DNA from: a virus
IMG/VR virus record: IMGVR_UViG_3300029305_006397
Length of the DNA: 64,000 bases
Reading direction: 5' to 3' (one strand)
This document shows positions 21,883-60,995 of the stretch, in pieces; the stretch's first letter is position 1; every line of letters begins with the position of its first letter. Position numbers and translations under genes: made by a program. A model generated the notes under the pieces. It had not been told where the DNA came from. It was given only the letters and a program-made list of their open reading frames with translations, and searched no databases.

Positions 21883-22006
21883 GTTTGCACTTAATGTTTA
21901 TTATGTTTTCATTTGGTACAATTATTTTTTGCACCACATGATTATAATAACACATTTTTGAATCAAAGTCAATGTATATTTTTTATTTTTGCAGATAATA
22001 TTTATT
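21883..22006 (-). promoter_or_regulatory. three tandem copies of the conserved promoter-like motif
   Basis: Plus-strand TTTGCACTTAATGTTTATT at 21883-21902, with variants at 21928-21947 (TTTGCACCACATGATTATAA) and 21988-22006 (TTTGCAGATAATATTTATT). Confidence 0.6.
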
Positions 22007-24317
22007 GCATTCTTTTCTTTTCTACTTCTGATTTGAGTAGACGCTGCATGAAAGTATGCCTGGTTAGATTCTCTTTCTTCAAAACTGCTTTATTAATCGT
22101 ATCTAGTTCTCCCAAGTGAAAACAGGTTTTGCGCATTCGGGTCAAACCAACATAAATCAAATTGCTATTAAGCATGAAAAAATGGCTTTTAGGAGTGCAA
22201 AGAATTACATTATCAATGGAAGAGCCCTGAGATTTATGTAATGTAATTGCATATCCCAAGCTTAGATTGTCAAAATCACTTTGAGAATAGCGGACGAATA
22301 CATTATCAAATTCAATAATGGCATATGACGCGCAGATGGATCGGATAATTCCCGTTTCGCCATTTGCAATAAACGCAGTAATTTCTTTATTTGGATACTC
22401 ATCAGCCAACAACCTTTCTGCTGGTGAATAATGATCCGGATCAACCATCGCTTTATAATTATTTGCCTTTTGAATTACCAGATCGCCTTCAAAGAAAACA
22501 GACTCGCCATGACTAAAGCAAGCTGTTTTACTGTAATTTGGGTTTGCAATGCGTTGGATTTCATTATTCAAGTCAATTGTGCCACATTCCCCTCCATTCT
22601 TAGCGGTAAGAACCTGGATATTTTCCATTGAATTTCCCAAAGACAAGAGTTTACGATAAAGTTGAACAATGGTTTGCTGCATAGATTGCGCTGGCACATC
22701 CACAAAAGTGTAATCTTTATTATTGCCAAAGACTGTAGCCTTACTTCGCATACCTGAATTGAGATACGGTTTCCTGAATCGAACATCGGTTGCTACTTTC
22801 ATTAAGCCACCTTCCGAATATCGAAACACTGTTTTTAATGTAACAGACGGAATCAATCTGGTTTCCATAAAGTCATGAAGAAGATTCCCACATGATACGG
22901 ATGGCAGCTGCGCATTATCGCCAATCAAAAGTAGCTTAGTTCGATTAAAATCAATGGCCTTAAGTAGCCTTTGAAAAAGCCAGATATCTACCATAGAAAA
23001 TTCATCTACAATAACAATGTCTGCATCCAGTTTGTTACTTTCGCAAAACGTCCATTCACCGTCTCCGGGATTCCATCCAAGACCACGATGAATTGTAGAC
23101 GCATGACGCTTAGTATAGTTTGTCAATACTTTTGCGGCTTTTCCAGTGGGAGAAAATAGCCTATATGTTTTCTGGTTGGCTTCCAGAAGATTGATTATAG
23201 CCTGGGTAGAAAACGACTTTCCTGTTCCGGCAGCACCATTTAAAATACTGACAGTATATTTACATACGTTTTTAGCACAACTTAATTGTTCATCTGAAAG
23301 CGCGATTCCATCCACCATGCGATAAGCTTCTACATCATAATCCCAAACGGTGTTTTGAGCTGCAAGACCGGATATAATTGTTTGTGCAATATATTGCTCG
23401 GTATTAAAAGTATTTTTAAGAGAAGCTTCGTTTGCATCAGGACAGAAATAAAATTCAGGATCATTCAAAGCATCAAAGAAATGCTTTGCACAGGCAGGCG
23501 TAAGATTTTGACAAGCTGCCTTTAAATCGGCAACGGACATTTTTGTATGTCCTTCGCCTTCATTTTGAGAAAGTAAATAATAAATACATGCCTGACACCT
23601 TTCTATGCTGGTTTTTAAATCTGAGTTAAACTGAATCGAAGGTTCTTTTCCGTTTTTAACAGCTTCTCGACCTGCCGCCTCCATAGAAAGCAAGATGGAG
23701 TCTGCAGTTTTAAAGCCTACACGCGCAAGATCGCACAAACACTTATAGGGTTCAATTCTGAGATGATGCTTAATTGTTTCAATTGAAGGATACTTTTCGT
23801 AGAGTTTCCTCATTATAGTGGTAGAAATAGCACCATCAAACAAGGCGATCAAATCAAACAAGCAGAAGTTTTCAATGATTTTTTCTTTGATCTTTTCAAA
23901 TGTTTTTTCTTTTATACCGTACAGCTTGTTCAAATCGATATCATCGAGCCTGTTTTCACGGACGCGCTGAATGATATCGGGATAATGCTTGAGCAATTCA
24001 TCTGCTTGATTCAAGGTCAAAACTTCGCGCAAGAAGGCGCGGGTACTATCAAGGGTAATAGGAACATCGCGGCGAATGCTCAAGACATTGTATCCTATGC
24101 CATATTTGCTGTGTTGTTCAGTTGCAACAATTTCATATTCTACGCCAGTGCTTAAGCCCTGAAGATCCCCAATTAATGATACGTTGCCATATTTGTTGCA
24201 GCGAATCGCCGGATATTTGCCTTTATCAATGTCGGCAGCATAGATTTTGAAAGATGGGTAATCGCATATACATTTTGCAATAGTTGCCCTGAATGAAACC
24301 TTTTTATCTTTATTCAT
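22002..24317 (-). CDS. RecD-like SF1 DNA helicase
   Basis: 771 aa with Walker A GAAGTGKS, Walker B VIVDEFSMVD and C-terminal ITLHKSQGSS. Confidence 0.85.
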   Translation of the reverse strand: MNKDKKVSFRATIAKCICDYPSFKIYAADIDKGKYPAIRCNKYGNVSLIGDLQGLSTGVEYEIVATEQHSKYGIGYNVLSIRRDVPITLDSTRAFLREVLTLNQADELLKHYPDIIQRVRENRLDDIDLNKLYGIKEKTFEKIKEKIIENFCLFDLIALFDGAISTTIMRKLYEKYPSIETIKHHLRIEPYKCLCDLARVGFKTADSILLSMEAAGREAVKNGKEPSIQFNSDLKTSIERCQACIYYLLSQNEGEGHTKMSVADLKAACQNLTPACAKHFFDALNDPEFYFCPDANEASLKNTFNTEQYIAQTIISGLAAQNTVWDYDVEAYRMVDGIALSDEQLSCAKNVCKYTVSILNGAAGTGKSFSTQAIINLLEANQKTYRLFSPTGKAAKVLTNYTKRHASTIHRGLGWNPGDGEWTFCESNKLDADIVIVDEFSMVDIWLFQRLLKAIDFNRTKLLLIGDNAQLPSVSCGNLLHDFMETRLIPSVTLKTVFRYSEGGLMKVATDVRFRKPYLNSGMRSKATVFGNNKDYTFVDVPAQSMQQTIVQLYRKLLSLGNSMENIQVLTAKNGGECGTIDLNNEIQRIANPNYSKTACFSHGESVFFEGDLVIQKANNYKAMVDPDHYSPAERLLADEYPNKEITAFIANGETGIIRSICASYAIIEFDNVFVRYSQSDFDNLSLGYAITLHKSQGSSIDNVILCTPKSHFFMLNSNLIYVGLTRMRKTCFHLGELDTINKAVLKKENLTRHTFMQRLLKSEVEKKRMQ

Positions 24318-24333
24318 ATAGAACTCCTATATA

Positions 24334-24358
24334 GGTAGGGCAAAAGCAATGCCCTACC
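24334..24358 (-). other. 9-bp GC-rich stem-loop spanning the dnaE stop, just before the helicase SD
   Basis: GGTAGGGCA aaagcaa TGCCCTACC. There is no U-tract on the minus strand. Confidence 0.5.
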
Positions 24359-27300
24359 TTATTTCAATTTTAGACTTTGCTTCCGGTAATTTTTCGGGAA
24401 CATTATTCTTAATCACTTCATAATATTCAAGAACAAACTCTGTTTCATCGGATTTGATCCATTCGCCACCCACGAGCTTTATCTTAGGAACTTCAGTAAA
24501 ATTATCTATCTTTAATAGATCAAATTCACCAAATGGATTTTCGCGATAGATTTTTCCCTGCTTGATTCGTGTTTTGATTTCTTTGCCGGATTGAATTTGG
24601 CGCAGAAGCAACGAAGGACGGGACGGATCAGAATAGGTTTTGAAATCAACTACAACATAAAAACACGGATAGCATGCTGGATTAATATATGTAGTATATT
24701 CAAGGTATTCCATTTCGAATTTAACCTGATCAATGATTTGCATGGGTTTATTAGGAACTTTAGACGCCAAAAACTGAATAAGGCCGATATTGTTTAATTC
24801 GCGGAATTGAGCTGGCGTTTCTTTTCCGGAATAATCGCGAATTTCTGTTTCGCCAAGATTGAACTTATGAGAATAGACATCCAGTTTTTTCTTTGAAATA
24901 ATTTTTGAAGTTGCAAATTCATCATAAATTTCAATCAATTTTAAGAGATACTGATTACAACCGAAATCTTCAAAAAAATTCAGTCCGGTAAGAATTACCA
25001 ATTGCCTTGAATCCAGAGTTTTATTTTTCTTTATATCTTCAAGCAGATCAATAAACGAAGCATACTTATTTTCAGAAAGAGCAAGCAACTTATTGGCAAT
25101 TTCAGCATTACAATACTTTACTGACGCAATTCCCTTGTAAATGCAGTTGTTTTCACGATCCATAGAATAATCTGCACCGGATTTGCCGAACTTAATAGGC
25201 TTTAAATCAATACCAAAGTAAGGAAGTTCTGCAATCAGATTTGCAGTACGAGCCATATCGTCGGCATACAAAGACAGAGTGACGGTATAATACTCCAAAG
25301 GATAATGGGATTTAAGGTATGCTCCATAAACACTATCGATAGCAACGGAAAGCGAATGAGAAGCATTAAAAGAATACCTTGCAGCATCCTGAACGACCTG
25401 CCATGTTTCTGCAAAACCATCCATGGAACCAACATTTTTAATCCATCCGGATTCAAGCTGTTTCTGAAGAGCCAGAAGTTCTTCTTCCTTGAACTTCTTT
25501 TTGGCTATTTTTTTGATAATGTCATAAGTACCCTTTTCTTCAATGCCCAACCATACGAGATATTTCATAATGGATTCCTGGTACATCATAAAATGGAAAG
25601 AATCTTCGAGTATTGCATCCAGTTCTGCAACGCCAGTGGAGTATGGTTCGCGATCCAAGAAGGTATTAAGCAGCGATGCAAATCCCGGTCTGATGGATGC
25701 CACCCATGCAGACATTTCCGCCAAAGACCTGGGCTTATAACGCTTTAATGTTTGTTTGCCAAAGTCGGAATCGGACTGATTTATGGTTGTGGTAAGCGCA
25801 TTGGCGTAAATATCCCATACTTTATCATCACAATTCTCAAGCAGGGTATTGATATCATCAATTGGACGGCCTATGAGCTTATAAACGCGGTCAATAATGT
25901 CATATACCTTAACGGTTAAGTAATCATTCTTCAGGTATTTATAAACATCACAGTTGTAACCATCCAGGGCACAGCACATGGTATAATTGGTGGCGTTGCC
26001 TACGCGAATCAGGCCAACTTCATCCGGGATCGGATGATCCAGAAGAAGGAAAGAACACGGAGACGGAGCAATAGATTCGATAACACCACGGAAAACTTTA
26101 CTTGCTTCAATGATATCTTTCCAACGGGCATCGTCAAGATGATCTTCGAGATTCTTAGCAATTTCATCATAATCTTCAAGATTGTACCCATTGGCTTTGC
26201 ACCACAGGCGAAATGCAGAAGACTCTTGAAGTGGCTTATAAGCCACCATATAATAAATGCCCTCTTCGCCCAGGATGTCCTTTGATGCCTGTATAACGGG
26301 CTCTACGGACGCGAAATTAAGGTCTATATCCGGTAGCGACCTGGAGGATAAAATACGTTCCGCAGACATAAAGCGCGTGGGATACAATGTAATTGGTGCG
26401 GCAAGACGATCAATTTCTGTAAGCCCAAGAAGATGATTAATATAGAAAGAAACTGCACTACCACGACCGGAACGGGTAAGAACGGCTCCATACTCATTGA
26501 CGGCCCTTTTGACGATCAGATGATCCAAGATAAAATATCTTGCCATACCACATTTTTCTACGATATCAGTTTCATAATATATAGCATCCTGATATTCTGG
26601 AATGCGCTTTGCCCGTACTTTACCCTTTTCTCTTCTCCATGCTCTTGCCAGAATTGCTTTAAGCACTTGATTATCATCAGAATAATCAAAATTTGGGATA
26701 TGTAAATCCTTACGAAGAAGCTCTTCTTTGATCTTAGGAATTTTGAACTCCTTATCTACATGAACACCTTCTGCTTGATCAAAGACCAATGTATTTTCAA
26801 GCGCTTCGATTGCCTGTTCCCTACTGAGAACGCCCTGCGTTTCATATCTGGCAAGAATGGTTTCTGCATCAGGATAATCAAGTTCAAATCCAGATTCATC
26901 ATCATAATAGATGCCCTTGGCCCGGAGAAACAAATCGCGATACTTAGCGTCTTCGGGATAAATATAATGGGAGTCATTTGCATGAATAAGACCTACATTA
27001 TATTTTTCTTTCAATTTCAGGATTCGCATATTATAAAGAATCTGCTGCTGCGCAGAATGCGCCTGAACCTCTAAAAAGAAATTTGAACCGAAATGATTCA
27101 TAACAGGCTGCAGAAAAGCCGTTTCCCAATCATCACCTTTGAAAAGACGACCTGCGATACATGCTGTTGTTACAACAGTATCAGTTGGAGTGAGAGAAAG
27201 CAAAGACTGAAGATCTATGCGAGGCTTATAATAAAAACCATCCTGATTCGCAATAGACATGATACGATTGATTTCTCTTCTGGCCTTTTCGGTGAGCGCA

Positions 27301-27569
27301 ACAAGCATAATATGATACATTGATCTGGAGGATTTATCAAACATATCGTCTACATAATATGCTTCTACGCCATAGATGCATTTAAGACCATGCTTTTCGC
27401 AAAGAGTTTGAGCTTCATATATATTCCCCTGATAACCATGTTCAGCTGTAAAATATGTTGTATGCCCCAGTTCCAAAGCACGGAGGATATAATCCTCCGG
27501 CTTTGAAACGCAATCAAGAGTTCGAATATTGGAATAATGAGTATGTTTATGGTAATTGTTATACCGCAT
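24354..27569 (-). CDS. dnaE: DNA polymerase III alpha subunit (DnaE-type, N-terminal PHP domain)
   Basis: About 1070 aa with PHP motif HKHTHYS at the N-terminus. Size and domain order resemble DnaE. Start at MRYNNY (SD AGGGGA). Confidence 0.8.
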   Translation of the reverse strand: MRYNNYHKHTHYSNIRTLDCVSKPEDYILRALELGHTTYFTAEHGYQGNIYEAQTLCEKHGLKCIYGVEAYYVDDMFDKSSRSMYHIMLVALTEKARREINRIMSIANQDGFYYKPRIDLQSLLSLTPTDTVVTTACIAGRLFKGDDWETAFLQPVMNHFGSNFFLEVQAHSAQQQILYNMRILKLKEKYNVGLIHANDSHYIYPEDAKYRDLFLRAKGIYYDDESGFELDYPDAETILARYETQGVLSREQAIEALENTLVFDQAEGVHVDKEFKIPKIKEELLRKDLHIPNFDYSDDNQVLKAILARAWRREKGKVRAKRIPEYQDAIYYETDIVEKCGMARYFILDHLIVKRAVNEYGAVLTRSGRGSAVSFYINHLLGLTEIDRLAAPITLYPTRFMSAERILSSRSLPDIDLNFASVEPVIQASKDILGEEGIYYMVAYKPLQESSAFRLWCKANGYNLEDYDEIAKNLEDHLDDARWKDIIEASKVFRGVIESIAPSPCSFLLLDHPIPDEVGLIRVGNATNYTMCCALDGYNCDVYKYLKNDYLTVKVYDIIDRVYKLIGRPIDDINTLLENCDDKVWDIYANALTTTINQSDSDFGKQTLKRYKPRSLAEMSAWVASIRPGFASLLNTFLDREPYSTGVAELDAILEDSFHFMMYQESIMKYLVWLGIEEKGTYDIIKKIAKKKFKEEELLALQKQLESGWIKNVGSMDGFAETWQVVQDAARYSFNASHSLSVAIDSVYGAYLKSHYPLEYYTVTLSLYADDMARTANLIAELPYFGIDLKPIKFGKSGADYSMDRENNCIYKGIASVKYCNAEIANKLLALSENKYASFIDLLEDIKKNKTLDSRQLVILTGLNFFEDFGCNQYLLKLIEIYDEFATSKIISKKKLDVYSHKFNLGETEIRDYSGKETPAQFRELNNIGLIQFLASKVPNKPMQIIDQVKFEMEYLEYTTYINPACYPCFYVVVDFKTYSDPSRPSLLLRQIQSGKEIKTRIKQGKIYRENPFGEFDLLKIDNFTEVPKIKLVGGEWIKSDETEFVLEYYEVIKNNVPEKLPEAKSKIEIR

Positions 27570-27870
27570 TGGTATCCCCTGCCTTTCCGGCTTCACGATC
27601 TATCCATGCAAAATTTTCAAATGAAATGCTATTTTCGTGTTCGATCCATCGCTGCTCAAGTTCAAGCCAAAAGGGACAAGAGCGATACAGGGTAATTCGA
27701 ATCGGAGAAGGTGATCGAGCTGCCTGCTTCATTAACGCCAGGAAATTTTGCTGAATCATGATTTTAGGAGCCTGCATAAATTGCCTTCTGACGGAATCAC
27801 CTTCCTCGATACATAATTTGCATTCATAGACTTCAAAATCATCAGAAAAACCTTGATGATGTACATACAT
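27559..27870 (-). CDS. hypothetical protein
   Basis: 103-aa ORF in the train. Confidence 0.5.
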   Translation of the reverse strand: MYVHHQGFSDDFEVYECKLCIEEGDSVRRQFMQAPKIMIQQNFLALMKQAARSPSPIRITLYRSCPFWLELEQRWIEHENSISFENFAWIDREAGKAGDTNAV

Positions 27871-27883
27871 AAAAGTTCACCAC

Positions 27884-29071: not shown

Positions 29072-29094
29072 ATATTATCACTTCCTTTATTTTT

Positions 29095-29113
29095 TTTGCA
29101 CTTAATGTTTATT
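29095..29113 (-). promoter_or_regulatory. conserved promoter-like motif
   Basis: TTTGCACTTAATGTTTATT, 23 nt upstream of the nuclease ATG. Overlaps the methyltransferase stop codon. Confidence 0.6.
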
Positions 29114-29839: not shown

Positions 29840-29840
29840 T

Positions 29841-34390: not shown

Positions 34391-34409
34391 TTTGCACTTA
34401 ATGTTTATT
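34391..34409 (-). promoter_or_regulatory. conserved promoter-like motif
   Basis: TTTGCACTTAATGTTTATT, 27 nt upstream of the ATPase ATG. Overlaps the upstream stop codon. Confidence 0.6.
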
Positions 34410-35595: not shown

Positions 35596-35648
35596 AATAT
35601 TATTTCTCCTTTGAAATAAGATATATATACTAAAAGCAAATTAGCTTA

Positions 35649-48116: not shown

Positions 48117-48205
48117 TTACAATTCCCCCTACCACGATAAATAGGCAGAAAATTAAGTCCAAGCATAACTGCTAGTGGCTTACGAAGCGCATAGATAAAT
48201 CTCAT
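48113..48205 (-). CDS. hypothetical 30-aa peptide
   Basis: Not in the ORF track because it is under 60 aa. SD AAGGAG lies 6 nt upstream and the stop overlaps the next ATG (ATGA). Confidence 0.35.
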   Translation of the reverse strand: MRFIYALRKPLAVMLGLNFLPIYRGRGNCK

Positions 48206-48214
48206 ATAAACTCC

Positions 48215-50233: not shown

Positions 50234-50673
50234 TAGGCAACCTCCTGTTTGATTTTCGATTCAGAGTTTTTATGGTCTGCTTCAATTTGGGCCTCTTCGA
50301 ATGATGAGAATAATTTGGATTCAGGAACCTCAAGTTTAGCGTCTCCGCAAGAAACTTCATAGCTTATATCAGTATCCGTCTCATCGTCTGAGTCGTTATA
50401 TGCAATAACGGCCTCAACTGTAAAAGGATATTTATCTGCATAATACATCCATTGAGTTTTTGCTAGTTTCCCTGCTTGGCAAAAATATCTGGCAGGGGCA
50501 TCCCCAAAGACATGAAAAACGGCAGCGCATTTGGCAATGCGGTCGCCTTCAAGTCTTACTTCTCCAGCGCCTTTACAGGCGGGGCAAAGCAAACCAGGAA
50601 TCACGAGAGGACGATTTGAACTTTCAACACGATATACCTTGTCACCCACGTTGTATTTGCACTTAATGTTCAT
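50233..50673 (-). CDS. hypothetical protein
   Basis: Start at MNIKCKY (SD AGGAGG). The ORF-track N-terminal extension runs through tRNA-Gln and is rejected. Confidence 0.6.
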   Translation of the reverse strand: MNIKCKYNVGDKVYRVESSNRPLVIPGLLCPACKGAGEVRLEGDRIAKCAAVFHVFGDAPARYFCQAGKLAKTQWMYYADKYPFTVEAVIAYNDSDDETDTDISYEVSCGDAKLEVPESKLFSSFEEAQIEADHKNSESKIKQEVA

Positions 50674-50695
50674 AGAAACCTCCTGAGATAAAATG

Positions 50696-50849: not shown

Positions 50850-51234
50850 ACAGCAGAGAAGTTTAAACCTTGTGTTTTTTTAATGCGGAGCTAACGGGAC
50901 ATTGTTTCAGCTCAGGCATTTCTTCGTAACACATTACTCCTACTTCCAAAGGATGCACTTTAAGACCGTATGTCTTGCTGCTGCGCAGAGGTAGCATTTC
51001 CTCCGCTTGAACACTTTCGCAGTTCCCGGCACTAGACACTTTCGTAGTCTCCAACGCCATCGTTTGTATGCTCAATTTACTTTTACCCAGTAGCGAACTG
51101 GAGAAGGCTGAACCACCTGGCTATAAATACAACAATGGTCTAAGCGTTAGGCAGACGGTCAAGAATCTGCCCCACGGAATCGTACCGTGCCACCTGCGGT
51201 AAATAAGACGCAGGATCGAACCTCGCTTTTAGGA
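50850..51234 (-). ncRNA. structured non-coding block A of the tRNA island
   Basis: 385 nt, GC-rich, with no SD-preceded ORF. Holds several stems, including two tandem GAAA-tetraloop hairpins with compensatory changes and a T-arm-like CACGG TACGATT CCGTG. Confidence 0.5.
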
Positions 51235-51701: not shown

Positions 51702-51777
51702 TGGCAGGGAAGAAGAGATTCGAACTCTTATCTACATCGGTTTTGGAGACCGGAGTTTTGCATTAAACTACTTCCCT
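51702..51777 (-). tRNA. tRNA-Trp(CCA), CCA encoded
   Basis: AGGGAAG ... CCGGT CTCCAAA ACCGA ... AAGAG TTCGAAT CTCTT CTTCCCT G CCA. Confidence 0.85.
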
Positions 51778-53061: not shown

Positions 53062-53131
53062 ATATACCCTAATCTGTTATCGTACAGATTGGTAGAAACG
53101 CCGGATTTGCACCGGGACTCGCGAGTGTCTT

Positions 53132-53180
53132 TGGGCGCAGCCAGGGATCGAACCCGGAAATCAAGACTTGGCTTCCTGCA
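53132..53180 (-). ncRNA. tRNA-like minihelix ending in CCA
   Basis: TGCAG (18 nt) CCGGG TTCGATC CCTGG CTGCG C CCA. A perfect T-arm stacks on a 5-bp acceptor-like stem, with no D or anticodon arm. Confidence 0.3.
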
Positions 53181-53316
53181 TTTTGCCTCTTAAATTACTG
53201 AGCCATAAAACTCCCGGTGGGTTCTCAGGCCCACATTGCCCGTTTACCGAAGCAGTGACGGCAGTCCTTCAGGTGATAAGCTTAAAGTCACCCTTGCGAA
53301 TTTGTACGACAGGAGT

Positions 53317-53402
53317 TGGTGAATACAATTGGATTCGAACCAATGCTCGACGACTGAGCCAAAGGCATGGGCCGTCCGTGCTAACCGCTACACCATATAT
53401 TC
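53317..53402 (-). ncRNA. 86-nt tRNA-like RNA with non-canonical anticodon region, CCA encoded
   Basis: Canonical acceptor (GAATATA/TGTATTC), D arm, T arm (ATTGG TTCGAAT CCAAT) and ACCA. The 33-nt central region has no convincing 5-bp stem with a 7-nt loop (best candidate is a weak GCC reading); instead a 6-bp stem GACGGC/GTCGTC forms. Confidence 0.5.
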
Positions 53403-53550: not shown

Positions 53551-53627
53551 TGGTGGGGGCCACAGGACTCGAACCTGTGACCGATCGGTTATGAGCCGAC
53601 TGCTCTGACCAACTGCGCTAGACCCCC
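53551..53627 (-). tRNA. tRNA-Met(CAT), or Ile2 if lysidinylated; CCA encoded
   Basis: GGGGGTC ... GTCGG CTCATAA CCGAT ... ACAGG TTCGAGT CCTGT GGCCCCC A CCA. Confidence 0.9.
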
Positions 53628-54006
53628 ATATGTAATGCCCCTGGTTGTATTAAATACATATGCATATGGATAGCTACGTCCCGCGAAGGAGTATTCGCGT
53701 GTATGCCTGACTTAAATCACGGACTCCAATTGTATTACTATGTGACGCATACTTTCGTTTTTATCCGCTATCTGGACGGGGCAGGTTAAGCGATAACCTA
53801 TGCCTTTCGACAACCCAGCCTCTAATAAGAGGCTGACGCTCATGGCCTAATGTCCTGTTTCAACTCGCCATGACGAGCAATCACCTGCAAGAATCGAACC
53901 TGCCTGGAAGTCAAGCTTCCTTTACTGCCGCCCAGAAGTGATTAAGATGGATTGTTTGACTTTAATTTGATAAGCGGAGGCCAAACAACCAAATTTCTCT
54001 CACGAT
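53628..54006 (-). ncRNA. structured non-coding block E of the tRNA island
   Basis: 379 nt with hairpins CGCGAA/TTCGCG, CAGCCTC/GAGGCTG and AGGTTA/TAACCT. Contains a degenerate tRNA-like element. Confidence 0.5.
53880..53942 (-). pseudogene. 63-nt degenerate tRNA-like element (Gln-like relic)
   Basis: 7-bp acceptor ATCACTT/AGGTGAT and T arm GCAGG TTCGATT CTTGC. The anticodon arm GGAAG CUUGA CUUCC has only a 5-nt loop, the D arm is truncated, and there is no CCA. Confidence 0.4.
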
Positions 54007-54092
<86 letters not shown>

Positions 54093-54096
54093 AGAT

Positions 54097-54119
54097 TGGT
54101 GGGCCTTAACGTCGGCCCA
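54097..54119 (-). ncRNA. hairpin ending in ACCA, 4 nt upstream of tRNA-Leu(TAA)
   Basis: T GGGCC GACGTTAA GGCCC A CCA. It mimics an acceptor end. Confidence 0.3.
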
Positions 54120-54170
54120 AACGACAGATGGGTTTATGCGCTGCGTAACCTCTTTTGCTCTTAACCGCGA

Positions 54171-54253
54171 TGGTGGGGATGGTGGGACTTGAACCCACAC
54201 GGTCTAGCCGTCGCATTTTGAGTGCGATGCGTCTGCCATTCCGCCACAACCCC
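54171..54253 (-). tRNA. tRNA-Leu(CAA), type II, CCA encoded
   Basis: GGGGTTG TG GCGGAATGGCAGACGC A TCGCA CTCAAAA TGCGA, a variable arm, then GTGGG TTCAAGT CCCAC CATCCCC A CCA. Confidence 0.85.
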
Positions 54254-54366
54254 GCCTAGTATGGCATGCCGTTCGGCTTACGACGGCCATAACGCCGGAT
54301 TTAGGAAATCACCCAAGAAAGGAGGTGTACATATGAAACCGTATCTCACCCGGAATCAGATGTAAG

Positions 54367-54442
54367 TGGTGAAAGTGGCGGGATTCGAACCCGCGACTCA
54401 CAGATTAAAAGTCTGTTACTCTACCGACTGAGTTACACTTCC
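54367..54442 (-). tRNA. tRNA-Lys(TTT), CCA encoded; first gene of the island
   Basis: GGAAGTG TA ACTC AGTCGGTA GAGT A ACAGA CTTTTAA TCTGT GAGTC GCGGG TTCGAAT CCCGC CACTTTC A CCA. Confidence 0.9.
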
Positions 54443-54450
54443 AAGTAATT

Positions 54451-54638
54451 TTTGCACATAATGTTTATTGTTTATCAGATCAATCCGAATTATCGTTTTC
54501 ATCTTTATTTTTGCATATAATGTTTATAAGCAATAAAAGAATGATTTACTGCCTTTTCAAATGATCGCCATTTGAATGCCTTCGGATTGATTGATAATAG
54601 ACAGTGATTCATTTTATCGTTTGCACTTAATGTTTATT
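54451..54638 (-). promoter_or_regulatory. three tandem copies of the conserved promoter-like motif upstream of the tRNA island
   Basis: TTTGCACATAATGTTTATT at 54451-54469, TTTGCATATAATGTTTATA at 54510-54528 and TTTGCACTTAATGTTTATT at 54620-54638. Confidence 0.6.
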
Positions 54639-54669
54639 AAAACATCTTAAATCGCCAACGACTGTAATA

Positions 54670-54698
54670 ATACTACCACAAGATTCATAGCTTGTCAA
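54670..54698 (-). promoter_or_regulatory. consensus sigma-A/sigma-70 promoter facing the tRNA island
   Basis: On the minus strand: TTGACA, a 17-nt spacer, then TAGTAT preceded by TGTGG (TRTG extended -10). Confidence 0.6.
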
Positions 54699-54729
54699 CC
54701 CCTTTTTCAAACTTTTTTGAAAAAAATTT

Positions 54730-55905
54730 TCAAGCTTCTGCTTTAAAATTATAGATGGGTTTAAAACGATCTACGATATCTACGGTTGGGCCAATGCAAT
54801 TAATAATTTCCTGATAATCCTTGTAAACAAAAGGAGCTTCATCCAAGGTTGATTCATTAATGCATGTGGAATATATGCCATTCATAGTTTCGGCATATTC
54901 TTCTACGGTAAATATCTTCTTTGCCTGTGCGCGAGAATACAGGCGACCAGCTCCATGAGGAGCAGAACAATTCCATTCGGTATTGCCCTTTCCTCTGCAG
55001 ATCAAAAGACCATCACGCATATTAAGAGGAATTACAAGAAACTGACCTTGCTGCGCAGAGATTGCGCCTTTGCGCAAAATCATTTCTTTCACATTGATAT
55101 AATTATGTACACTATCAATGCAATAATCGATTTCACCACCCATAGCAGATACGATTGTATGCAACATTATCCATCTATTCTGTTCAGCAAATTCCTGTAG
55201 AATTGCAACGTCATGAAGATAATCATCCATGTCCTGTCCGGTAAGATAACAAAGATCGGGATCAATTGCGATATGATGTTCAGACAGCCATTGCTGGCGC
55301 ATAACAGGTTCAATAAACTGCAGTTGCTCCATGCGCAAATTATAGTTGTATTTCTTTATGCGATTTACGGCGAGGTTCTGGTAGTATTGAGCCACTTTCA
55401 GGCCGATATTGCGACTGCCTGAATGAACAGCGATATATCCATTTTCATACGCTTCGATGAAATGGTTCCCACCTCCAAGAGTTCCAAGGGTACACTTTGC
55501 CCTTTCCTGGGTCGCTTTATCCAATTTGTCCCAGCACCGCAATTCTTCGAAATCTCGTTCCCATACCTTCTCAGTCGAATGTACATCCATACCAAACGGA
55601 ATACTAGATCGGATAGCGGCGTCCAATTCATCAAGGCGAGAATCAAAATCAATATTGGTTTGTACAAGTGATACACCACAACCGATATCTACGCCAACCA
55701 AATTCGGGCATACCTTATCCGTGATATGCATAGTAGTACCGATTACACAGCCAGCTCCGGCATGGGCATCCGGCATGATTCGAATATGTGCGTCCTTACC
55801 CAAAGGAGAATCCGCCATCTTTTTAATTTGATCGATAGCTTGATCCTCAATTGTCTTAGCATAAATGACGACATCATCACCATGGGTAGACTTATATATT
55901 TTCAC
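54730..55905 (-). CDS. rtcB: RNA 3'-phosphate / 2',3'-cyclic-phosphate ligase RtcB
   Basis: Motifs MPDAHAGAGC, GGGNHFIE, HSGSRNIG and SAPHGAGR. GTG start with SD GAAGGTGAG. Confidence 0.9.
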   Translation of the reverse strand: MKIYKSTHGDDVVIYAKTIEDQAIDQIKKMADSPLGKDAHIRIMPDAHAGAGCVIGTTMHITDKVCPNLVGVDIGCGVSLVQTNIDFDSRLDELDAAIRSSIPFGMDVHSTEKVWERDFEELRCWDKLDKATQERAKCTLGTLGGGNHFIEAYENGYIAVHSGSRNIGLKVAQYYQNLAVNRIKKYNYNLRMEQLQFIEPVMRQQWLSEHHIAIDPDLCYLTGQDMDDYLHDVAILQEFAEQNRWIMLHTIVSAMGGEIDYCIDSVHNYINVKEMILRKGAISAQQGQFLVIPLNMRDGLLICRGKGNTEWNCSAPHGAGRLYSRAQAKKIFTVEEYAETMNGIYSTCINESTLDEAPFVYKDYQEIINCIGPTVDIVDRFKPIYNFKAEA

Positions 55906-55985
55906 TTTTTCTCACCTTCTCAGTAAATTCTTCAAGACTATAAAAGGTATTATAAAACCCCTATAATCCTATTTTATACTCATGA

Positions 55986-56624
55986 TTAAACCTCATTCAA
56001 TTCCTTGTACCTTTCCAACAGCGCAGCCATTTCAGGATTCTTATCTGCAATTGCCTGGTAAAGAATAAGTTCCTGATTATCCTTCACCATCTTGTCCATT
56101 TGCTTTTTCAGTGCTTCCTTGGCCTTACGCTGTTCCCGGCGTCTATGATAGGCTTCGAAATCGACCTTACAGACGACTTCTTTTACAGGCATAGTCCAGC
56201 CACTTTCACGGGCTTCATCCTGTGTAGCAAGACCTGAGACCCTACAAACCTGGAATCCACTAGCTGAATCAACAAGCACATAATCATTTACTTTTACCAG
56301 ATGTTCAGGATCGAAAAGTGCAAAATAATAATCCTTCACCGGGTTTGTACCATCAACAAAACGGCAAGCTGCCACCATATAATTTCCAGAAACTGCCATA
56401 TGATTCTTCTCCTTATTCTCTTTTGCTTCTTTTGCAATTTTATATTTGCGACCAACCCATATCAAACTATAGGGACTGTATTCATATGTTCCATAGCCAT
56501 TGTCAAGTTCTACTCTGATACGACTACCATCAAAACAATTTAAAGCTACGATCACGCCATATCTGCCATTGGTATAAGCTTTAGGCGATTGAATTTTCAC
56601 CCGGTCTCCAATAGAAAATTTCAC
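55986..56624 (-). CDS. hypothetical protein
   Basis: Start placed at the GTG at 56624 (SD GGTGA), just after the upstream stop. The ORF-track version overlaps the upstream gene by 80 nt. Confidence 0.5.
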   Translation of the reverse strand: MKFSIGDRVKIQSPKAYTNGRYGVIVALNCFDGSRIRVELDNGYGTYEYSPYSLIWVGRKYKIAKEAKENKEKNHMAVSGNYMVAACRFVDGTNPVKDYYFALFDPEHLVKVNDYVLVDSASGFQVCRVSGLATQDEARESGWTMPVKEVVCKVDFEAYHRRREQRKAKEALKKQMDKMVKDNQELILYQAIADKNPEMAALLERYKELNEV

Positions 56625-56625
56625 A

Positions 56626-57117
56626 TTAATCACCAGCCTGATTCTTAGCCGATGCGCCTTTGAGCTTTTTAACAACGGGCTTATGTCGCAAAAGCTTTTC
56701 GTCATCCGAAGTAAACACCTTAGTTACGGTAACGACAGATGTATTGGAACCATCCTTGCATTTGGATTTGACCTGTACAATATCTCCAACTTCAATAGAC
56801 ATGCGCTTTGCAACGCGCCAGGTATATTCCTTATCATTTCCTTCAAATTTGCCGCAGATATATACCGAGACTACGTTATCAAGCTGTTTCTGCTGCTCAG
56901 ATACAGAAATATAGGGAATATGATCCATTCCGGCTTCGATAGCTACAAGATAACGAACATAGCCATCGACAAGGACATTATCGGATAGAACTACGGGGCG
57001 ATCCAATTTACCATTTTCTTTGAGGTATGTACGAACGACATCCATTTTGTGAGTACCAGGTTTAGTGTTGCGAAAAGACGACGGTACATAGATATCCTTA
57101 ATGTTGATCTTTTTCAT
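56626..57117 (-). CDS. ParB-like nuclease-domain protein
   Basis: N-terminal ...PVVLSDNVLVDGYVRYLVAIEAGMDHIPY resembles the ParB/Srx DGhhR motif region. Confidence 0.55.
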   Translation of the reverse strand: MKKINIKDIYVPSSFRNTKPGTHKMDVVRTYLKENGKLDRPVVLSDNVLVDGYVRYLVAIEAGMDHIPYISVSEQQKQLDNVVSVYICGKFEGNDKEYTWRVAKRMSIEVGDIVQVKSKCKDGSNTSVVTVTKVFTSDDEKLLRHKPVVKKLKGASAKNQAGD

Positions 57118-57146
57118 TATTGTGCCTCCAATTCATATGTCGTGAG

Positions 57147-57587
57147 TTATTCAACAACCAGTTCAAGTTTTGTAAAAGTGGAAAGTTCATCGACAAGATA
57201 GATTTCAAAGCAATCGCAGCCATCCTGAGTGCCAACGTATTTAAAAGCAATATGTGCAATATCCAATGCTTCTTCTACCATATAATCGTAACCATCCTGA
57301 TCGAGAATCCAGAGGGCATCGGTACATTCAGAAAGGCGCAGATTGTAACCGTAGTCAAAACCCAGCAAGTCAAAGCTGCCTCTATTCTTTTCGTAATCAA
57401 GGACTCGAAGTGTTTTGATGGTACGAGATTCTTTAATTTCTGAGCGAATGCGGCGCAACACAAAAATGGGATCATCAAAAGATTGGGAAACCTCGTTAAT
57501 CCATGAATGATCCTGGGTAAATAAAGAACAAGGATTATCGATGATTTGAAGATGAAAAGGATTGGCGACGATGATTTCAGTATTCAT
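57147..57587 (-). CDS. hypothetical protein
   Basis: 146 aa with SD AAGGAGAG. Preceded by two short upstream ORFs. Confidence 0.55.
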   Translation of the reverse strand: MNTEIIVANPFHLQIIDNPCSLFTQDHSWINEVSQSFDDPIFVLRRIRSEIKESRTIKTLRVLDYEKNRGSFDLLGFDYGYNLRLSECTDALWILDQDGYDYMVEEALDIAHIAFKYVGTQDGCDCFEIYLVDELSTFTKLELVVE

Positions 57588-57626
57588 AAAAATCTCTCCT
57601 TATAAAATAATCTTAAACTGGTATTC

Positions 57627-57655
57627 TTTACAAGGAGTAGAAAATGTGCTATGAT
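57627..57655 (+). promoter_or_regulatory. plus-strand sigma-A/sigma-70 promoter of the antisense sRNA
   Basis: TTTACA (57627-57632), a 17-nt spacer, then TATGAT (57650-57655) preceded by TGTGC (extended -10). Confidence 0.6.
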
Positions 57656-57659
57656 ATAG

Positions 57660-57838
57660 ACGCATAAAGACCTCCAAGTACGGCATCTTTTCGCATAAAG
57701 ACCTCCTGTACTGAAGCCTTTATGTCCAACAAAGCACACTTAACGAAGCCATCCGGTAAAGACGGCCAATTAAGCTGTTTTGTTGTTGGGGCCACCTTGA
57801 GTTGATCCGCCAAGATTCAGAACTCAAGGTGGTTTTTA
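57660..57838 (+). ncRNA. candidate ~175-nt antisense sRNA
   Basis: Bounded by the promoter above and a 12-bp terminator stem. Carries two copies of CGCATAAAGACCTCC (anti-SD/anti-ATG). It is the only plus-strand transcription unit seen in about 57 kb. Confidence 0.55.
57792..57838 (+). terminator. rho-independent terminator of the sRNA
   Basis: CCACCTTGAGTT / AACTCAAGGTGG 12-bp stem followed by TTTTT. There is no U-tract on the minus strand. Confidence 0.75.
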
Positions 57839-57882
57839 TGTTCCAGAACGCTTATCGAACAAGCGTTTGGTTGATATTTCTA

Positions 57883-57911
57883 ATGATACCACATAATGTC
57901 ACGTTTTGCAA
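57883..57911 (-). promoter_or_regulatory. minus-strand sigma-A/sigma-70 promoter convergent with the sRNA promoter
   Basis: On the minus strand: TTGCAA, a 17-nt spacer, then TATCAT preceded by TGTGG. Confidence 0.55.
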
Positions 57912-57948
57912 TGGTACTAAATGGGATTTTCAGAACATTCGTTCGATT

Positions 57949-58905
57949 TTACGTTTTGTTCGGGCTAATTGGTACATCAAACATATCTACTCGTCCACGC
58001 ATAGTAACAAGAAAATTCGGAAGCTCAGACTTGTATTTACTTCGTTTCAATTCATTTTGAATAATTTCAAATCCTCGCTTATTTCGGGAGCGCTTTTCAA
58101 ATACCTCAGACATATCAAGTCCTTCCTTATGAAGATTGATCGCAATACGATGCATAATTCCACTTATATAAACATCATACGGGCGAATATCATAATCAAT
58201 ATAGCGTTTTGCAATATTTCTAAACGCAGTTTGATGTTTAACGTGGGCAAACCTCCCGTCAGACGAAGATCGAGCTGCCATCTTGAAACAACTATCTACA
58301 TGTTCGCCTTCCAATGGAGAACGAGAAACCGTTCCGAATCGGTTGGGATGTTCCCAAACACTTATTTTGCTAAGTTCTATGAGATCGTTAGCAAGTTTTG
58401 CAGATATTTCCAAATCGTAGATTTCGCCCTCGTCTGTGTGCAAAGTTACAAAGCCATCATGGATATCTTCACTCTTCAAGTGAACCAACACATCCAAATT
58501 ATCATTATAAATGCCTTCATAAATAGAACGCATCAGACAGGTATAGTACAGCACATTGTATTCTTCTTCAGTTTGAATCCTGGAGCAAAGAGCTTCAAAA
58601 TCTGCATTTGAGATGTATTTCTTTGAATTTTCCTTATACATTTCCCAAAACACGCCTTTATCAAATCTGCGAACAGCGCTAACGATATCTTTTCTGTTTA
58701 TAAAATAAGCATATTTTATAATAATGGTAAGATATTGAGATACAATGCGATCCGATACAGGTTTAGCCTCAATGAGAATATCAGCAATCGACTGCTGTGT
58801 AAAACTTTCAAAATCATATTCTTCCAAAGCGGTAAATGTTTTTGCAGTTCGTTTCAATCCAGAAGATTCGATTGAATCTAAAAACCGGGCATACGTTTCC
58901 TTCAT
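57949..58905 (-). CDS. hypothetical protein, possibly a degenerate tyrosine-recombinase-like fold
   Basis: 318 aa with SD AGAGAGGAAA. The layout is loosely integrase-like, but no H-x-x-R / Y catalytic set could be identified. Confidence 0.55.
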   Translation of the reverse strand: MKETYARFLDSIESSGLKRTAKTFTALEEYDFESFTQQSIADILIEAKPVSDRIVSQYLTIIIKYAYFINRKDIVSAVRRFDKGVFWEMYKENSKKYISNADFEALCSRIQTEEEYNVLYYTCLMRSIYEGIYNDNLDVLVHLKSEDIHDGFVTLHTDEGEIYDLEISAKLANDLIELSKISVWEHPNRFGTVSRSPLEGEHVDSCFKMAARSSSDGRFAHVKHQTAFRNIAKRYIDYDIRPYDVYISGIMHRIAINLHKEGLDMSEVFEKRSRNKRGFEIIQNELKRSKYKSELPNFLVTMRGRVDMFDVPISPNKT

Positions 58906-58992
58906 TATTATTTCCTCTCTTTCTTTTCAATGGGGATTTGATAACTTTCTTTGGGATAATCAAAAATAAGCATTGTTGCTTGTTATACTCGC

Positions 58993-59439
58993 TCAATAAG
59001 GGCCTCGATAAATCTTGCCAGTGAAGTTGCCGTTTTTATCCTGCTCCCATATACAATCATACATACCGATTAAACGATTTCTGTATACCTGGCTGGGTTC
59101 GTTACCTTCGTAAATCTTGTCGTCCTTATATCTGATTTTATCGTATTCATATCGGTTCCAGTCGATGATTTTTGCCACAGGCAGAGGATGTTGTTTAATG
59201 ATTTTGCGATACTTACCATCGCTATACCATTCATTGATCTGGCGTTTCTCGAAATGCTCAATATCCCACTTCCAGCTTTCGATATCGACAACGCCCTGGG
59301 GGATGGGATCTTCAGGAAGATAATAGAGCGTTTTCCTGATCTCGGCGGCACGGGCATTGGTTTCTCTGGTTTTCTTATTCTGCGCAGCGGCAGCTGCGCC
59401 CCAAAGGAAAAGACCTGCGAGAAGTTTAATCATCAACAT
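58993..59439 (-). CDS. hypothetical secreted protein
   Basis: Start at MLMIKLL (SD AAAGGAG). Signal-peptide-like LLAGLFLWGAAAAAQ. Confidence 0.55.
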   Translation of the reverse strand: MLMIKLLAGLFLWGAAAAAQNKKTRETNARAAEIRKTLYYLPEDPIPQGVVDIESWKWDIEHFEKRQINEWYSDGKYRKIIKQHPLPVAKIIDWNRYEYDKIRYKDDKIYEGNEPSQVYRNRLIGMYDCIWEQDKNGNFTGKIYRGPY

Positions 59440-59449
59440 TCGACTCCTT

Positions 59450-60253
59450 TCAAATATATTCAAGACCAAGTTCCACGCTATTGAAAATGCTTTCTACTTC
59501 GGTATCCATGATGCCAATATACTTTAGTGTAACTTGCGGACTGGAATGACCAAACGCCTGTTGAAGTATAACCAGTGCTTTAGACTTATCTTCTGCGTTG
59601 TGCCATCTCCAATAGCCCCACGTTTTTCTCAGTGAATGCGACCCGATATTTTGTTTGATTCCAGCTTCCGCCGCTGTATCTTTTATAACTCTCCAGAGAT
59701 ATTTAGATTCAATCGGATCGTTTCCCTTTTGAGAAGGAAAAAGGTAATCGTCTAAATTATCTATTGGGTATTCTGAAATGAAATTCATAATTGCAGCCTG
59801 TACAGTTTGATTGAAAAACAGCTTTACAAATTTCTTTTGCTTCTTTTGCTTTTGCGGTTGCAAGGCATAGAATTGTTTAAAAGCAAGGTTTCCGGCATTA
59901 TTTCGTTCGAGAAAGAACGACCAGCGCAAAGTGCGAAGATCGGATGCCCGAACACCAACATTGATTCCGATCAAAAACAGTAGCTTGTTTCGCGAAGCAG
60001 TTTTTTTGCGACATACGCCAGAAGCTGACGTAATATGTTTATCAAATATGGCGATCATCGCCTGAATTTCTTCCTGGGTGCGAAATGCGTACACTTCTGA
60101 AGATTCGCCTGCAATTTTATTATTGCGGCTTTTATTGATCGAACCATCCAGATTGTACTTGACTTTCTTTTTCTGTTTACCGCCCTGCAAAACGCTAAGA
60201 GGAACGATGTTTGAAGTGTCCCGTTCAATCGGGAAAGCGACCACATTATTCAT
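59450..60253 (-). CDS. tyrosine recombinase / integrase (second copy)
   Basis: GSHSLRKTWGY (H-x-x-R) and FGHSSPQVTLKYIG (H ... Y). The ATG at 60253 overlaps the upstream stop (ATGAATAA). Confidence 0.8.
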   Translation of the reverse strand: MNNVVAFPIERDTSNIVPLSVLQGGKQKKKVKYNLDGSINKSRNNKIAGESSEVYAFRTQEEIQAMIAIFDKHITSASGVCRKKTASRNKLLFLIGINVGVRASDLRTLRWSFFLERNNAGNLAFKQFYALQPQKQKKQKKFVKLFFNQTVQAAIMNFISEYPIDNLDDYLFPSQKGNDPIESKYLWRVIKDTAAEAGIKQNIGSHSLRKTWGYWRWHNAEDKSKALVILQQAFGHSSPQVTLKYIGIMDTEVESIFNSVELGLEYI

Positions 60254-60956
60254 GTACGATTTCAATCCTTTCTTTAATTTTTGATGTGTCAATGACCAAT
60301 TCATCTTCATCTCGGCCATTGAAATAAGCGAGGATTTCAGATTTATCGACGGTTGCCCTTTGAATATAACCTTTTTCATCGGCTATATCAAAGCGGTGGG
60401 CAAACCACTTTGCAGTTTCAAGACTCCAAGTCCACGAAAGACCATTGGGGTTACGACCCACAGAGACGCCACGATATACCGTAAGATGCTGAGGCAACCT
60501 TTCGTAATAAGCAAGTTCATCAGCATCCATGAGATACTTTTTATTTGCCTGACGGAACCACGATGCAGCTGTACGCAAGGAAACATTTGCATCTTGATTT
60601 GGATTTTCTACGTTTACCCATACAGTTGCCAACATCCGATCCCGTTCTTCCTTTGAAAGATAGGTGCGGATATGTTTTAGAAAAGTAAGCTGATAAGCTT
60701 TTCGGATCATCATGACGACGCCAAATGCATTAGTTTGCTTATCAATTACCGGAAGCATTGCTTCACGAGCAAGATTAAGCTCATTTGAATCTAACAGATT
60801 CAGCATTTTCCATTCGCCATTAATCATCGCTGGATGCGTTGCAGTTTCAAAAACAGGGTGATAGAGAATAAAAGGCAAATCGCTTTGATGGATATTCATA
60901 TATAAGAATATCCTTGCCATTCTCTTGACTTCATTCAAATCAGTTTGCCTTTTCAT
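60246..60956 (-). CDS. putative ADP-ribosyltransferase (R-S-E type) with unknown N-terminal domain
   Basis: The C-terminal third has LTVYRG (Arg), GLSWTWSLETAKWF (S-x-S region) and GRDEDELVID (E-x-E). Start at MKRQTD (SD GGGAGAA). Confidence 0.5.
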   Translation of the reverse strand: MKRQTDLNEVKRMARIFLYMNIHQSDLPFILYHPVFETATHPAMINGEWKMLNLLDSNELNLAREAMLPVIDKQTNAFGVVMMIRKAYQLTFLKHIRTYLSKEERDRMLATVWVNVENPNQDANVSLRTAASWFRQANKKYLMDADELAYYERLPQHLTVYRGVSVGRNPNGLSWTWSLETAKWFAHRFDIADEKGYIQRATVDKSEILAYFNGRDEDELVIDTSKIKERIEIVHE

Positions 60957-60976
60957 GCTCAATTCTCCCATTTATT

Positions 60977-60995
60977 TTTGCACATTATGTTTGTA
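60977..60995 (-). promoter_or_regulatory. conserved promoter-like motif
   Basis: TTTGCACATTATGTTTGTA, upstream of the ART-like gene. Confidence 0.55.

Follow-up and report, generated by a model that had tools for sequence, protein, structure and literature searches.

We analysed a stretch of 64,000 nucleotides of viral DNA (IMG/VR record IMGVR_UViG_3300029305_006397, hereafter the window), which derives from a large phage with a Firmicute host of low guanine-plus-cytosine (GC) content. A short motif is repeated along its genes, and we describe here this motif, the promoters beside it and an operon that encodes its candidate repressor, a protein of 318 amino acids (aa). The examined DNA comprised the window, approximately 10 kb to its right (contig L088) and approximately 4 kb to its left (contig L239). 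A gene train runs along the minus strand. It includes a DnaE-type polymerase, RecD2, an NAD ligase, NrdD, a PD-(D/E)XK nuclease, a Sak4-like AAA_24 protein, a helicase-like protein, a primase and a methylase, and also RtcB, 13 transfer RNA (tRNA) genes, two YopX-domain proteins, a dUTPase, ThyA, DHFR and guanylate kinase. An original prediction for this DNA had listed nine copies of the motif and read them as a phage-specific class of promoters.

The motif was scored on the minus (gene) strand, and its significance was evaluated against shuffled sequence. When up to three mismatches were allowed, the plus-strand 19-mer TTTGCACTTAATGTTTATT matched eight times, compared with 0.09 expected matches, a count that was reached in 0/100 shuffles. 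Four copies (21884, 29095, 34391 and 54620) are fully identical over 19 nt, as had been reported, and the motif constitutes the largest direct-repeat family of the window. Two near-invariant blocks, TAAACA and TGCAAA, whose starts lie 11 nt apart, enclose a variable middle. Searching for TAAACA-N5-TGCAAA with at most one mismatch retrieved 11 matches, the weak copy at 21928 counted, versus 0.95 expected, and no shuffle scored as high. A direct scan found all nine copies of the original list in place on the minus strand, and the block pattern recovered 9/9. It also added two, one at 50656-50674 and one that is inverted, on the plus strand, at 61071-61087.

The 11 copies are spread over 39 kb and six loci, with 10/11 in gene orientation. 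Three of them are clustered within 190 bp (54451-54638) and another three within 125 bp (21884-22006). An alignment of 13 copies in gene orientation, four of which came from the related contig L119, yielded the consensus aATAAACATTAagTGCAAAaa. This consensus has approximately 19-22 informative positions and is AT-rich and asymmetric, with no dyad symmetry among the aligned copies. IMG/VR and metagenome contigs were scanned for exact 16-mers and 19-mers, and IMG/VR also for the two blocks; single unrelated chance matches were all that came back.

The distribution of the copies is more selective than had been claimed. They were said to mark nearly every intergenic gap of the minus-strand genes, and a crude gene call places the motif in only 5 of approximately 20-35 gaps of at least 25 nt; clear motif-free gaps are found at 58906-58992, 57588-57948, 55906-55985, 48117-48214 and 35596-35648. 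Likewise, a spacing of 10-30 nt to the following Shine-Dalgarno (SD) sequence, ATG or tRNA describes the copies at 60977, 54451, 34391, 29095 and 21884 (8-30 nt), and does not describe those at 54620, 54510, 21988 and 21928.

The boxes were also placed relative to promoters. These were predicted by consensus scan, with the transcription start set approximately 7 nt after each -10. Three boxes (60977, 54620 and 21884) lie 26-54 nt downstream of TG-extended sigma-A-type promoters, and the positions of the boxes relative to the predicted promoters display an operator geometry (Table 1). The three ordinary host-type promoters that had been noted before are indeed present, those at 54698-54670 and 57911-57883 by consensus scan and the one at 4093-4065 by eye.

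Table 1. Boxes, predicted promoters and repressor-operon genes of the window, from right to left
Feature	Coordinates	Strand	Context and basis
Inverted box CTTAAACATGATATGCAAA	61069-61087 (blocks 61071-61087)	+	5 nt upstream of the -35 of the repressor-operon promoter
Predicted sigma-A-type promoter TTGATT-17-TAAAAT, TG extension	61037-61065	-	9/12 matches; heads the repressor operon
Box TACAAACATAATGTGCAAA	60977-60995	-	~+36 to +54 from predicted start; 20 nt before first ATG of the repressor operon
Operon gene 1, 236 aa, phrog_4776	60246-60956	-	Gene call in L089
Small tyrosine recombinase, 267 aa, Pfam Phage_integrase	59450-60253	-	Apparent R / HxxR / Y motifs by eye
146-aa operon gene without assigned function	58993-59433	-	Gene call
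318-aa MrpR/YopR/SroF-family integrase-fold protein, candidate box-binding repressor	57949-58905	-	Profile and fold
LexA (Cheo) box CGAACGAATGTTC	57933-57945	-	Between repressor stop codon and promoter 57911-57883, ~20 nt upstream of the promoter
Predicted sigma-A-type promoter TTGCAA-17-TATCAT, TG extension	57883-57911	-	Consensus scan; no motif box
Predicted sigma-A-type promoter TTGACA-17-TAGTAT, TG extension	54670-54698	-	10/12 matches; heads the tRNA-island leader
Box AATAAACATTAAGTGCAAA	54620-54638	-	~+26 to +44 from predicted start of the 54698-54670 promoter
Box TATAAACATTATATGCAAA	54510-54528	-	Second box in the tRNA-island leader
Box AATAAACATTATGTGCAAA	54451-54469	-	8 nt before the first tRNA, tRNA-Lys 54442-54367
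Box TATGAACATTAAGTGCAAA	50656-50674	-	Covers ATG, after SD AGGAGG; first protein gene past the tRNA island, behind tRNA-Gln
Solo box	34391-34409	-	Overlaps upstream stop codon; 27 nt before ATG of the Sak4-like AAA_24/helicase/primase operon
Solo box	29095-29113	-	Overlaps methylase stop codon; 23 nt before ATG of the PD-(D/E)XK nuclease/DnaE/RecD2 operon
Box AATAAATATTATCTGCAAA	21988-22006	-	Overlaps RecD2 stop codon; 15 nt upstream of -35 TTGACT
Predicted sigma-A-type promoter TTGACT-17-TATTAT, TG extension	21944-21972	-	10/12 matches; heads the small-gene/ligA/nrdDG operon
Degenerate box TATAATCATGTGGTGCAAA	21928-21946	-	Across -10/+1 of the 21972-21944 promoter; 5 mismatches to the 19-mer, 1 to the two-block pattern
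Box AATAAACATTAAGTGCAAA	21884-21902	-	~+36 to +54 from predicted start; 26 nt before ATG of the 54-aa gene preceding ligA

The pair of boxes at 61071 and 60977 heads an operon that encodes four proteins, the 318-aa protein among them. By sequence profile and predicted fold, this protein belongs to the MrpR/YopR/SroF family. Its sole match in PHROG was phrog_5830 (expectation value, E, of 2.5e-4), which YopR itself matches at E 4e-117. The metagenomic homologues of the protein (34-39% identity, E ~1e-50) carry PF22823, which is MrpR_C_cat, as confirmed by scanning YopR. When a profile of 13 family sequences was compared to YopR with hhalign, the two aligned over 221 collinear columns with a probability of 85% (E 6e-6), while a control comparison of the family profile with the neighbouring, apparently active recombinase gave a probability of 0.3%. 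Meanwhile, the AlphaFold2 model of the protein (pLDDT 87, pTM 0.80) had its seven best Foldseek matches in PDB among structures of the same family, namely SroF-DNA (9rd5), YopR (8bj6/8bpz), MrpR (8a0a) and SroF-Sar (9rgl), with E values from 1e-9 to 2e-7. Further matches were to Cre, from E 2e-6, and to XerA and lambda Int, from approximately 4e-4. No significant Pfam match was obtained for the protein, Phage_integrase included, and tblastn against 50,697 phage records retrieved no match. In IMG/VR, the repressor family was found at 21 loci (L097-L117).

The first repressor candidate had been a different product of this operon, the Phage_integrase protein of 267/309 aa at 59450-60379. It was rejected on account of its apparent catalytic motifs, its matches to ordinary integrase families and its lack of similarity to YopR. 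A BLASTP comparison of the small recombinase with YopP was not significant.

The characterized members of the family are repressors of SPbeta-like Bacillus phages. MrpR is the master repressor of SPbeta, a prophage of Bacillus subtilis, and its 10 peaks in chromatin affinity purification sequencing (ChAP-seq) were all at SPBRE (SPbeta repeated element), a 15-bp element in promoter regions (Kohm et al., NAR 2023, PMC10516654). A monomer of SroF, from phi3T, nearly encircles an asymmetric, AT-rich box of 26 bp, CAGTAATTTTATTTTTATTCTTAATG, of which it reads 24/26 bp, two A-tracts included. The sites of SroF are found at distant parts of the genome, and the protein is inactivated by Sar, a LexA-controlled antirepressor (bioRxiv 10.1101/2025.11.27.690993).

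Based on the analogy with these systems, we postulate that an SPbeta-type master repressor with an integrase fold, the 318-aa protein, uses the motif as its operator box, and we estimate the probability of this reading at roughly 65%. An operator is favoured over a promoter or an RNA signal because one copy is inverted, one lies over a start codon, and the copies share no common RNA fold. By analogy with SroF, a single monomer would use its core-binding domain and its catalytic-like domain to clamp one box, with TAAACA and TGCAAA presented one helical turn apart and the box ending in an A-tract.

The location of each box would then determine how the bound repressor acts. At the boxes that flank or overlap promoters (the inverted copy at 61071, and those at 21988 and 21928), it would block initiation. 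At the leader boxes 60977, 54620 and 21884, which fall within approximately the first 25-55 nt, and at the junction boxes 54451, 50656, 34391 and 29095, which stand before a ribosome-binding site or the first tRNA, it would be a roadblock to elongating and read-through polymerase. In a lysogen, the repressor operon would be silenced through autoregulation, and silencing would extend to three operons of replication and nucleotide metabolism and to the tRNA island along with the genes that follow it. Release would probably be set off through the LexA-controlled promoter that comes directly after the repressor gene, in the manner of Sar in phi3T.

Several points weigh against this interpretation. 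We infer the binding of the protein to the box, the repression, the roadblocking at solo boxes and the SOS link, and the connection between protein and box is drawn by analogy. The 318-aa protein is only approximately 14-16% identical to SroF and YopR, and the kinship was missed by pairwise BLASTP against YopR, by Pfam release.1 and by a phmmer search of PDB sequences, emerging only from profile and fold comparisons. TM-scores of the model to the family are only approximately 0.5, which may reflect a different domain closure. The solo boxes at 29095 and 34391 have no convincing promoter nearby, which makes a roadblock at these two sites conjectural. The common direction of 10/11 copies is what a promoter or an RNA signal predicts, and it is equally seen for the boxes of SPbeta and phi3T; in addition, five window copies contain TGCAAAAAT, a possible extended -10. 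When the published box of phi3T is reverse-complemented, CATTAAGTGCAAAAATAAA from the window consensus agrees with it at 16/19 positions, a loose likeness that could be a product of A/T-richness, which both share, so that we regard it as a lead only. Finally, the examined DNA is a partial phage genome.

The gene content immediately downstream of the repressor gene provided further insights. Sites of the form GAAC-N4-GTTC occur twice in the 64 kb, against 0.54 expected, and one of the two is the LexA box CGAACGAATGTTC. The related contig L119 keeps it as CGAACAAATGTTC, along with the adjoining promoter. The promoter at 57911-57883 may be SOS-controlled, and its combination with the LexA box suggests an SOS-controlled gene of the antirepressor type, in analogy to Sar-SroF of phi3T. 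The 146-aa gene that lies downstream (57147-57587) displayed no BLASTP similarity to Sar (phi3T_99).

A leader of approximately 300 nt (57588-57880, minus strand) precedes this gene. It contains a long hairpin (57792-57832), which is kept in L119, and a direct repeat, GGAGGTCTTTATGCG, at 57692-57706 and 57661-57675, each copy of which resembles the SD and ATG of a tiny open reading frame. The leader had no match in Rfam; a small RNA or control through a leader peptide may account for it.

The original prediction had made conservation in relatives a test of the motif, and the outcome was divided: boxes are kept in contigs L119 and L118 and are missing from L001-L006 and L097-L117. In L119, a Logan contig, the repressor is 67% identical and the gene order is the same. 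The promoter and the three boxes of its tRNA-island leader stand as conserved islands between diverged spacers. An extra box precedes a 163-aa gene in this contig, and the counterpart of the 50656 variant is intergenic (L119:3013). In L118, a JGI contig, the repressor is 83% identical, and the inverted box (3133-3149, minus strand) and the promoter are kept.

At 3133-3350, the same JGI contig presents a natural deletion variant that has lost the gene of 236 aa and nearly all of the small recombinase gene, of which the codons for ...MDTEVESIFNSVELGLEYI and the stop are left. The repressor gene is retained, whereas the direct box farther downstream has degenerated (TAAACATTCCGGATAAA).

Among the IMG/VR relatives of the repressor (L097-L117, repressor 32-37% identical), the window box was not found. 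This is expected if box specificity and repressor diverge together, as between SPbeta and phi3T. The box was not found in the DnaE relatives L001-L006 of IMG/VR either.

Some of these relatives carry repeats of their own. In L001, L002 and L004, many small genes in succession upstream of DnaE have another repeat, TTAAAACATYTRTTTTAAGGAG, fused to their SD (an example is L002:5786-9870), and AAACATT is common to it and the window box. This repeat could be the cognate box of that lineage or a translation-initiation element. In L112 (repressor 34% identical), AACTACTTGCCATCTACAT lies over the -35/spacer of promoter-like sites at 4977-5003, 5982-6016 and 9052-9100, and three tandem 23-nt repeats with the palindrome TACTACTTTAAAGTAGTA are found at L112:6941-7015.

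Other explanations of the motif were also considered. The one that survives best, which we nevertheless regard as unlikely, follows the original prediction: the motif would be a phage-specific, -35-less promoter of middle genes, served by a phage sigma factor, an activator or a modified RNA polymerase, with transcription starting a few nt downstream. It accounts well for the gene orientation of 10/11 copies, for their location at operon heads and for the class of the genes that follow (replication, tRNA and nucleotide metabolism), which is typical of middle genes. The reported lack of a conserved -35 was upheld, since none was found when sought 16-18 nt from three candidate -10 registers. The presence of TGCAAAAAT in five window copies, which resembles a TG-extended -10, is also in favour of a promoter.

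One difficulty for this explanation is the -10 itself. The original prediction had placed an extended -10 within the motif, and neither candidate hexamer, CATTAA or AAAAAT, proved to be conserved across the 13 aligned copies. The best conserved parts are instead TAAACA and TGCAAA. The final base of CATTAA is A in half of the copies, and AAAAAT is absent from 54620, 21884, 50656 and L119:5538. The copies that lack AAAAAT either have a strong upstream promoter (54620, 21884 and L119:5538) or sit in coding sequence (50656), which speaks for the promoter reading. If AAAAAT is taken as the -10, however, the start falls inside the SD (60977 and 29095) or inside the tRNA (54451).

The placement of the copies raises further objections. 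Three of them lie in canonical leaders, one lies across -10/+1, one covers a start codon, and the inverted copy is directed towards a gene of opposite orientation, into its end. Boxes are absent from the next 10 kb of the gene train, which holds upstream early genes (L088), and from 7.6 kb of plus-strand, late-type genes at the left. No sigma factor or RNA polymerase was detected among approximately 45 window proteins scanned and in the Pfam lists of neighbouring contigs, a coverage that is partial. Moreover, the window encodes a member of the family that binds exactly such boxes. The part of the original prediction that stands is a phage-specific, cis-acting transcription-control signal at operon heads with no conserved -35, and the part that is disfavoured is a promoter class read by a phage sigma factor or a modified RNA polymerase. 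The motif is probably such a signal, read by a phage-encoded protein.

The operator and promoter explanations could also be combined, an arrangement that we hold to be quite unlikely. Here, the MrpR-like protein or another phage factor would direct the host RNA polymerase to the box, which would be a -35-less promoter, and a switch from roadblock to activator would take place in the lytic programme. If true, a protein with the tyrosine-recombinase fold would have a sigma- or activator-like role, and uncultured SPbeta-like phages of the Clostridia type would possess a new class of promoters.

It is very unlikely that the boxes are bound by another phage protein, for example a ParB-like protein of 163 aa at a centromere or iteron, or an origin-binding protein, while the MrpR-like protein binds elsewhere. 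The two clusters of copies (three in 190 bp and three in 125 bp) do recall iterons, a weakly ParB-like protein is encoded at 56626-57117, and the nearest isolate relative is Clostridium phage c-st, a plasmid prophage. Against this, operon heads across 40 kb carry scattered single copies, the box lacks the palindromic symmetry of parS, the ParB-like matches are marginal (E 2e-4 to 3e-4 over approximately 60 residues), and no other repeat of the window could serve the MrpR-like protein.

Least probable of all is a motif that acts on RNA, as an endonuclease processing site, a RegA-like translational-repressor site or a nut-like antitermination site: 10/11 copies do have the transcribed orientation and are placed in leaders or at 8-30 nt from a following SD or first tRNA, and one triplet precedes a tRNA array that must be processed, but eight boxes that were folded displayed no common secondary structure (z-scores -2.3 to +1.9), no box had an Rfam match, the exact two-block inverted copy, which is kept in L118, gives a different RNA, and the block spacing of 11 nt (one helical turn) and the positions relative to -35 and -10 suit the recognition of double-stranded DNA.

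The wider context of the window is that of an uncultured phage. Megablast of 9 kb against the 50,697 phage records returned no match. The identity of its DnaE was 55% to Clostridium phage c-st and 49% to C. difficile phages, and a DnaE-based scan of GTDB genomes returned no match. The same phage recurs in several JGI and ENA metagenome assemblies. No arbitrium genes were seen in the window, and no regulator family was found near the repressor operon or in the upstream Pfam lists; no search was aimed at aimR/aimP/aimX.

The tRNA island and its surroundings displayed several additional features. The RtcB gene (54730-55905) lies just upstream of the island. Two structured RNAs are located between the tRNA genes on the minus strand: a Pistol self-cleaving ribozyme at 53809-53878 (61.6 bits versus a gathering threshold of 34.5) and a RAGATH-36 RNA at 51031-51192 (73.2 bits versus 70). 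Both may help to process the tRNA-array transcript. Two separate tRNA-Trp genes are present at 51702-51777 and 53133-53204 (minus strand), and to a tRNA at 53317-53402 (minus strand) ARAGORN assigned no type, giving its 'anticodon (ca)' as two bases long. Elsewhere, the 36-nt gap between DnaE and RecD2 contains a 10-bp GC-rich stem-loop, AGGTAGGGCAAAAGCAATGCCCTACCT, at 24333-24359, which on the gene strand has no T-run.

A full-length integrase with a SAM-like N-terminal domain is encoded at 2719-3759 (minus strand) and adjoins tRNA-Lys(CTT) at 3851-3926 (minus strand). This tRNA has its own promoter, TTGACT-17-TATTAT, at 4065-4093 (minus strand). The integrase/tRNA-Lys(CTT) pair is situated between the end of the minus-strand train and the convergent, plus-strand late-type genes, and this is probably the attachment-site region.

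If the motif is indeed an operator, these findings have implications for the understanding of lysogeny control beyond Bacillus. A lineage of uncultured phages of anaerobic Firmicutes, very distant from SPbeta, would share the same design: a monomeric, clamp-like repressor, approximately ten dispersed asymmetric boxes by host-type promoters, a repressor operon that regulates itself and, next to the repressor gene, a LexA-controlled promoter. The window would also supply a second, unrelated box sequence with which to study how the integrase fold reads DNA, and its leader and junction boxes would offer a test set for roadblock repression. For genome annotation, the rule would be to look for a repeated box together with an MrpR_C_cat protein. 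Caution is due, as such repeats are tempting to misread as novel promoters.

Phage sigma factors define known promoter classes, such as those of gp28 and gp33/34 in SPO1 and the late promoter of gp55 in T4, TATAAATA. Similar to these classes, the motif is a short element without a host-type -35, repeated ahead of genes of one temporal class and oriented with their transcription. It further contains AATAAACA, a loose likeness to the T4 element that we presume to count for a promoter. The motif differs from these classes in that its -10-like element is not conserved at a position compatible with the SD or tRNA, that copies lie inside the leaders of host-type promoters, that one copy is inverted, and that no sigma factor or RNA polymerase gene is seen in the examined part.

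For comparison with the repressor systems of Bacillus phages, the boxes of SPbeta and phi3T were re-derived here from both genomes. Those that are clearly intergenic are in gene orientation, and many of them lie 0-25 nt before an SD. Several layouts recur. At yonX, the order is box, TTGATT/TATAAT, box and SD. At yopV, TTGACA-17-TATAGT is followed by a box and an SD. At aimR, a box lies 5 nt upstream of the -35 TTGACT. A box also precedes the yopM-R (sro) operon, which encodes the repressor and has an integrase-family gene two genes upstream of it. The window counterparts of these layouts are 21988/21928/21884, 54620 and 61071/60977. Informative lengths are comparable too, with approximately 19-21 positions in the window, 19 in phi3T and 22 in SPbeta.

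The likeness to SPbeta extends from the boxes to the organization of the genes. Both phages display a dispersed, asymmetric, AT-rich box in approximately 10 copies, in gene orientation, before an SD and beside or after sigma-A promoters. In both, a box heads the repressor operon, and the repressor has approximately 320 aa and a tyrosine-recombinase fold. The order recombinase, one gene, repressor is reminiscent of yopP-yopQ-yopR. Early regions are likewise similar in content, with small genes, a repressor operon, YopX-type genes, Sak4/helicase/primase/DnaE and nucleotide metabolism.

The differences from SPbeta are equally distinct. The box sequences are unrelated (tAGACAAAtAcAAAwAATATGTATAT in SPbeta, AATAAACATTAAGTGCAAAAAT in the window). 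While the SPbeta box usually supplies a TAGACA -35 and a TATAAT -10, promoter hexamers are lacking in the window box, which has complete promoters as neighbours. The window protein is approximately 15% identical to MrpR. Finally, the host is not a Bacillus: the nearest DnaE proteins, 49-55% identical, are those of Clostridium/Clostridioides phages. Because no phage record matched the DNA and the DnaE kin is Clostridial, we consider the window a distant analogue outside Spbetavirus.

As regards phi3T, the SroF-DNA complex was the best structural match of the window protein. The boxes have the same orientation and placement, with approximately 17 phi3T matches (at most six mismatches) in the 50 kb searched, and a LexA box and promoter are located near the repressor gene. 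The phages differ in that ATAAACA, the stretch in which the window box is best conserved, lies beyond the core of the phi3T box, and in that the gene downstream of the LexA box yielded no Sar homologue by BLASTP. A literature search returned nothing on Clostridia-type counterparts of the MrpR/YopR/SroF system. Systems of this kind have been known only since 2023-2025 and only from the arbitrium phages of the Bacillus SPbeta group, and the window would be a very distant addition to them.

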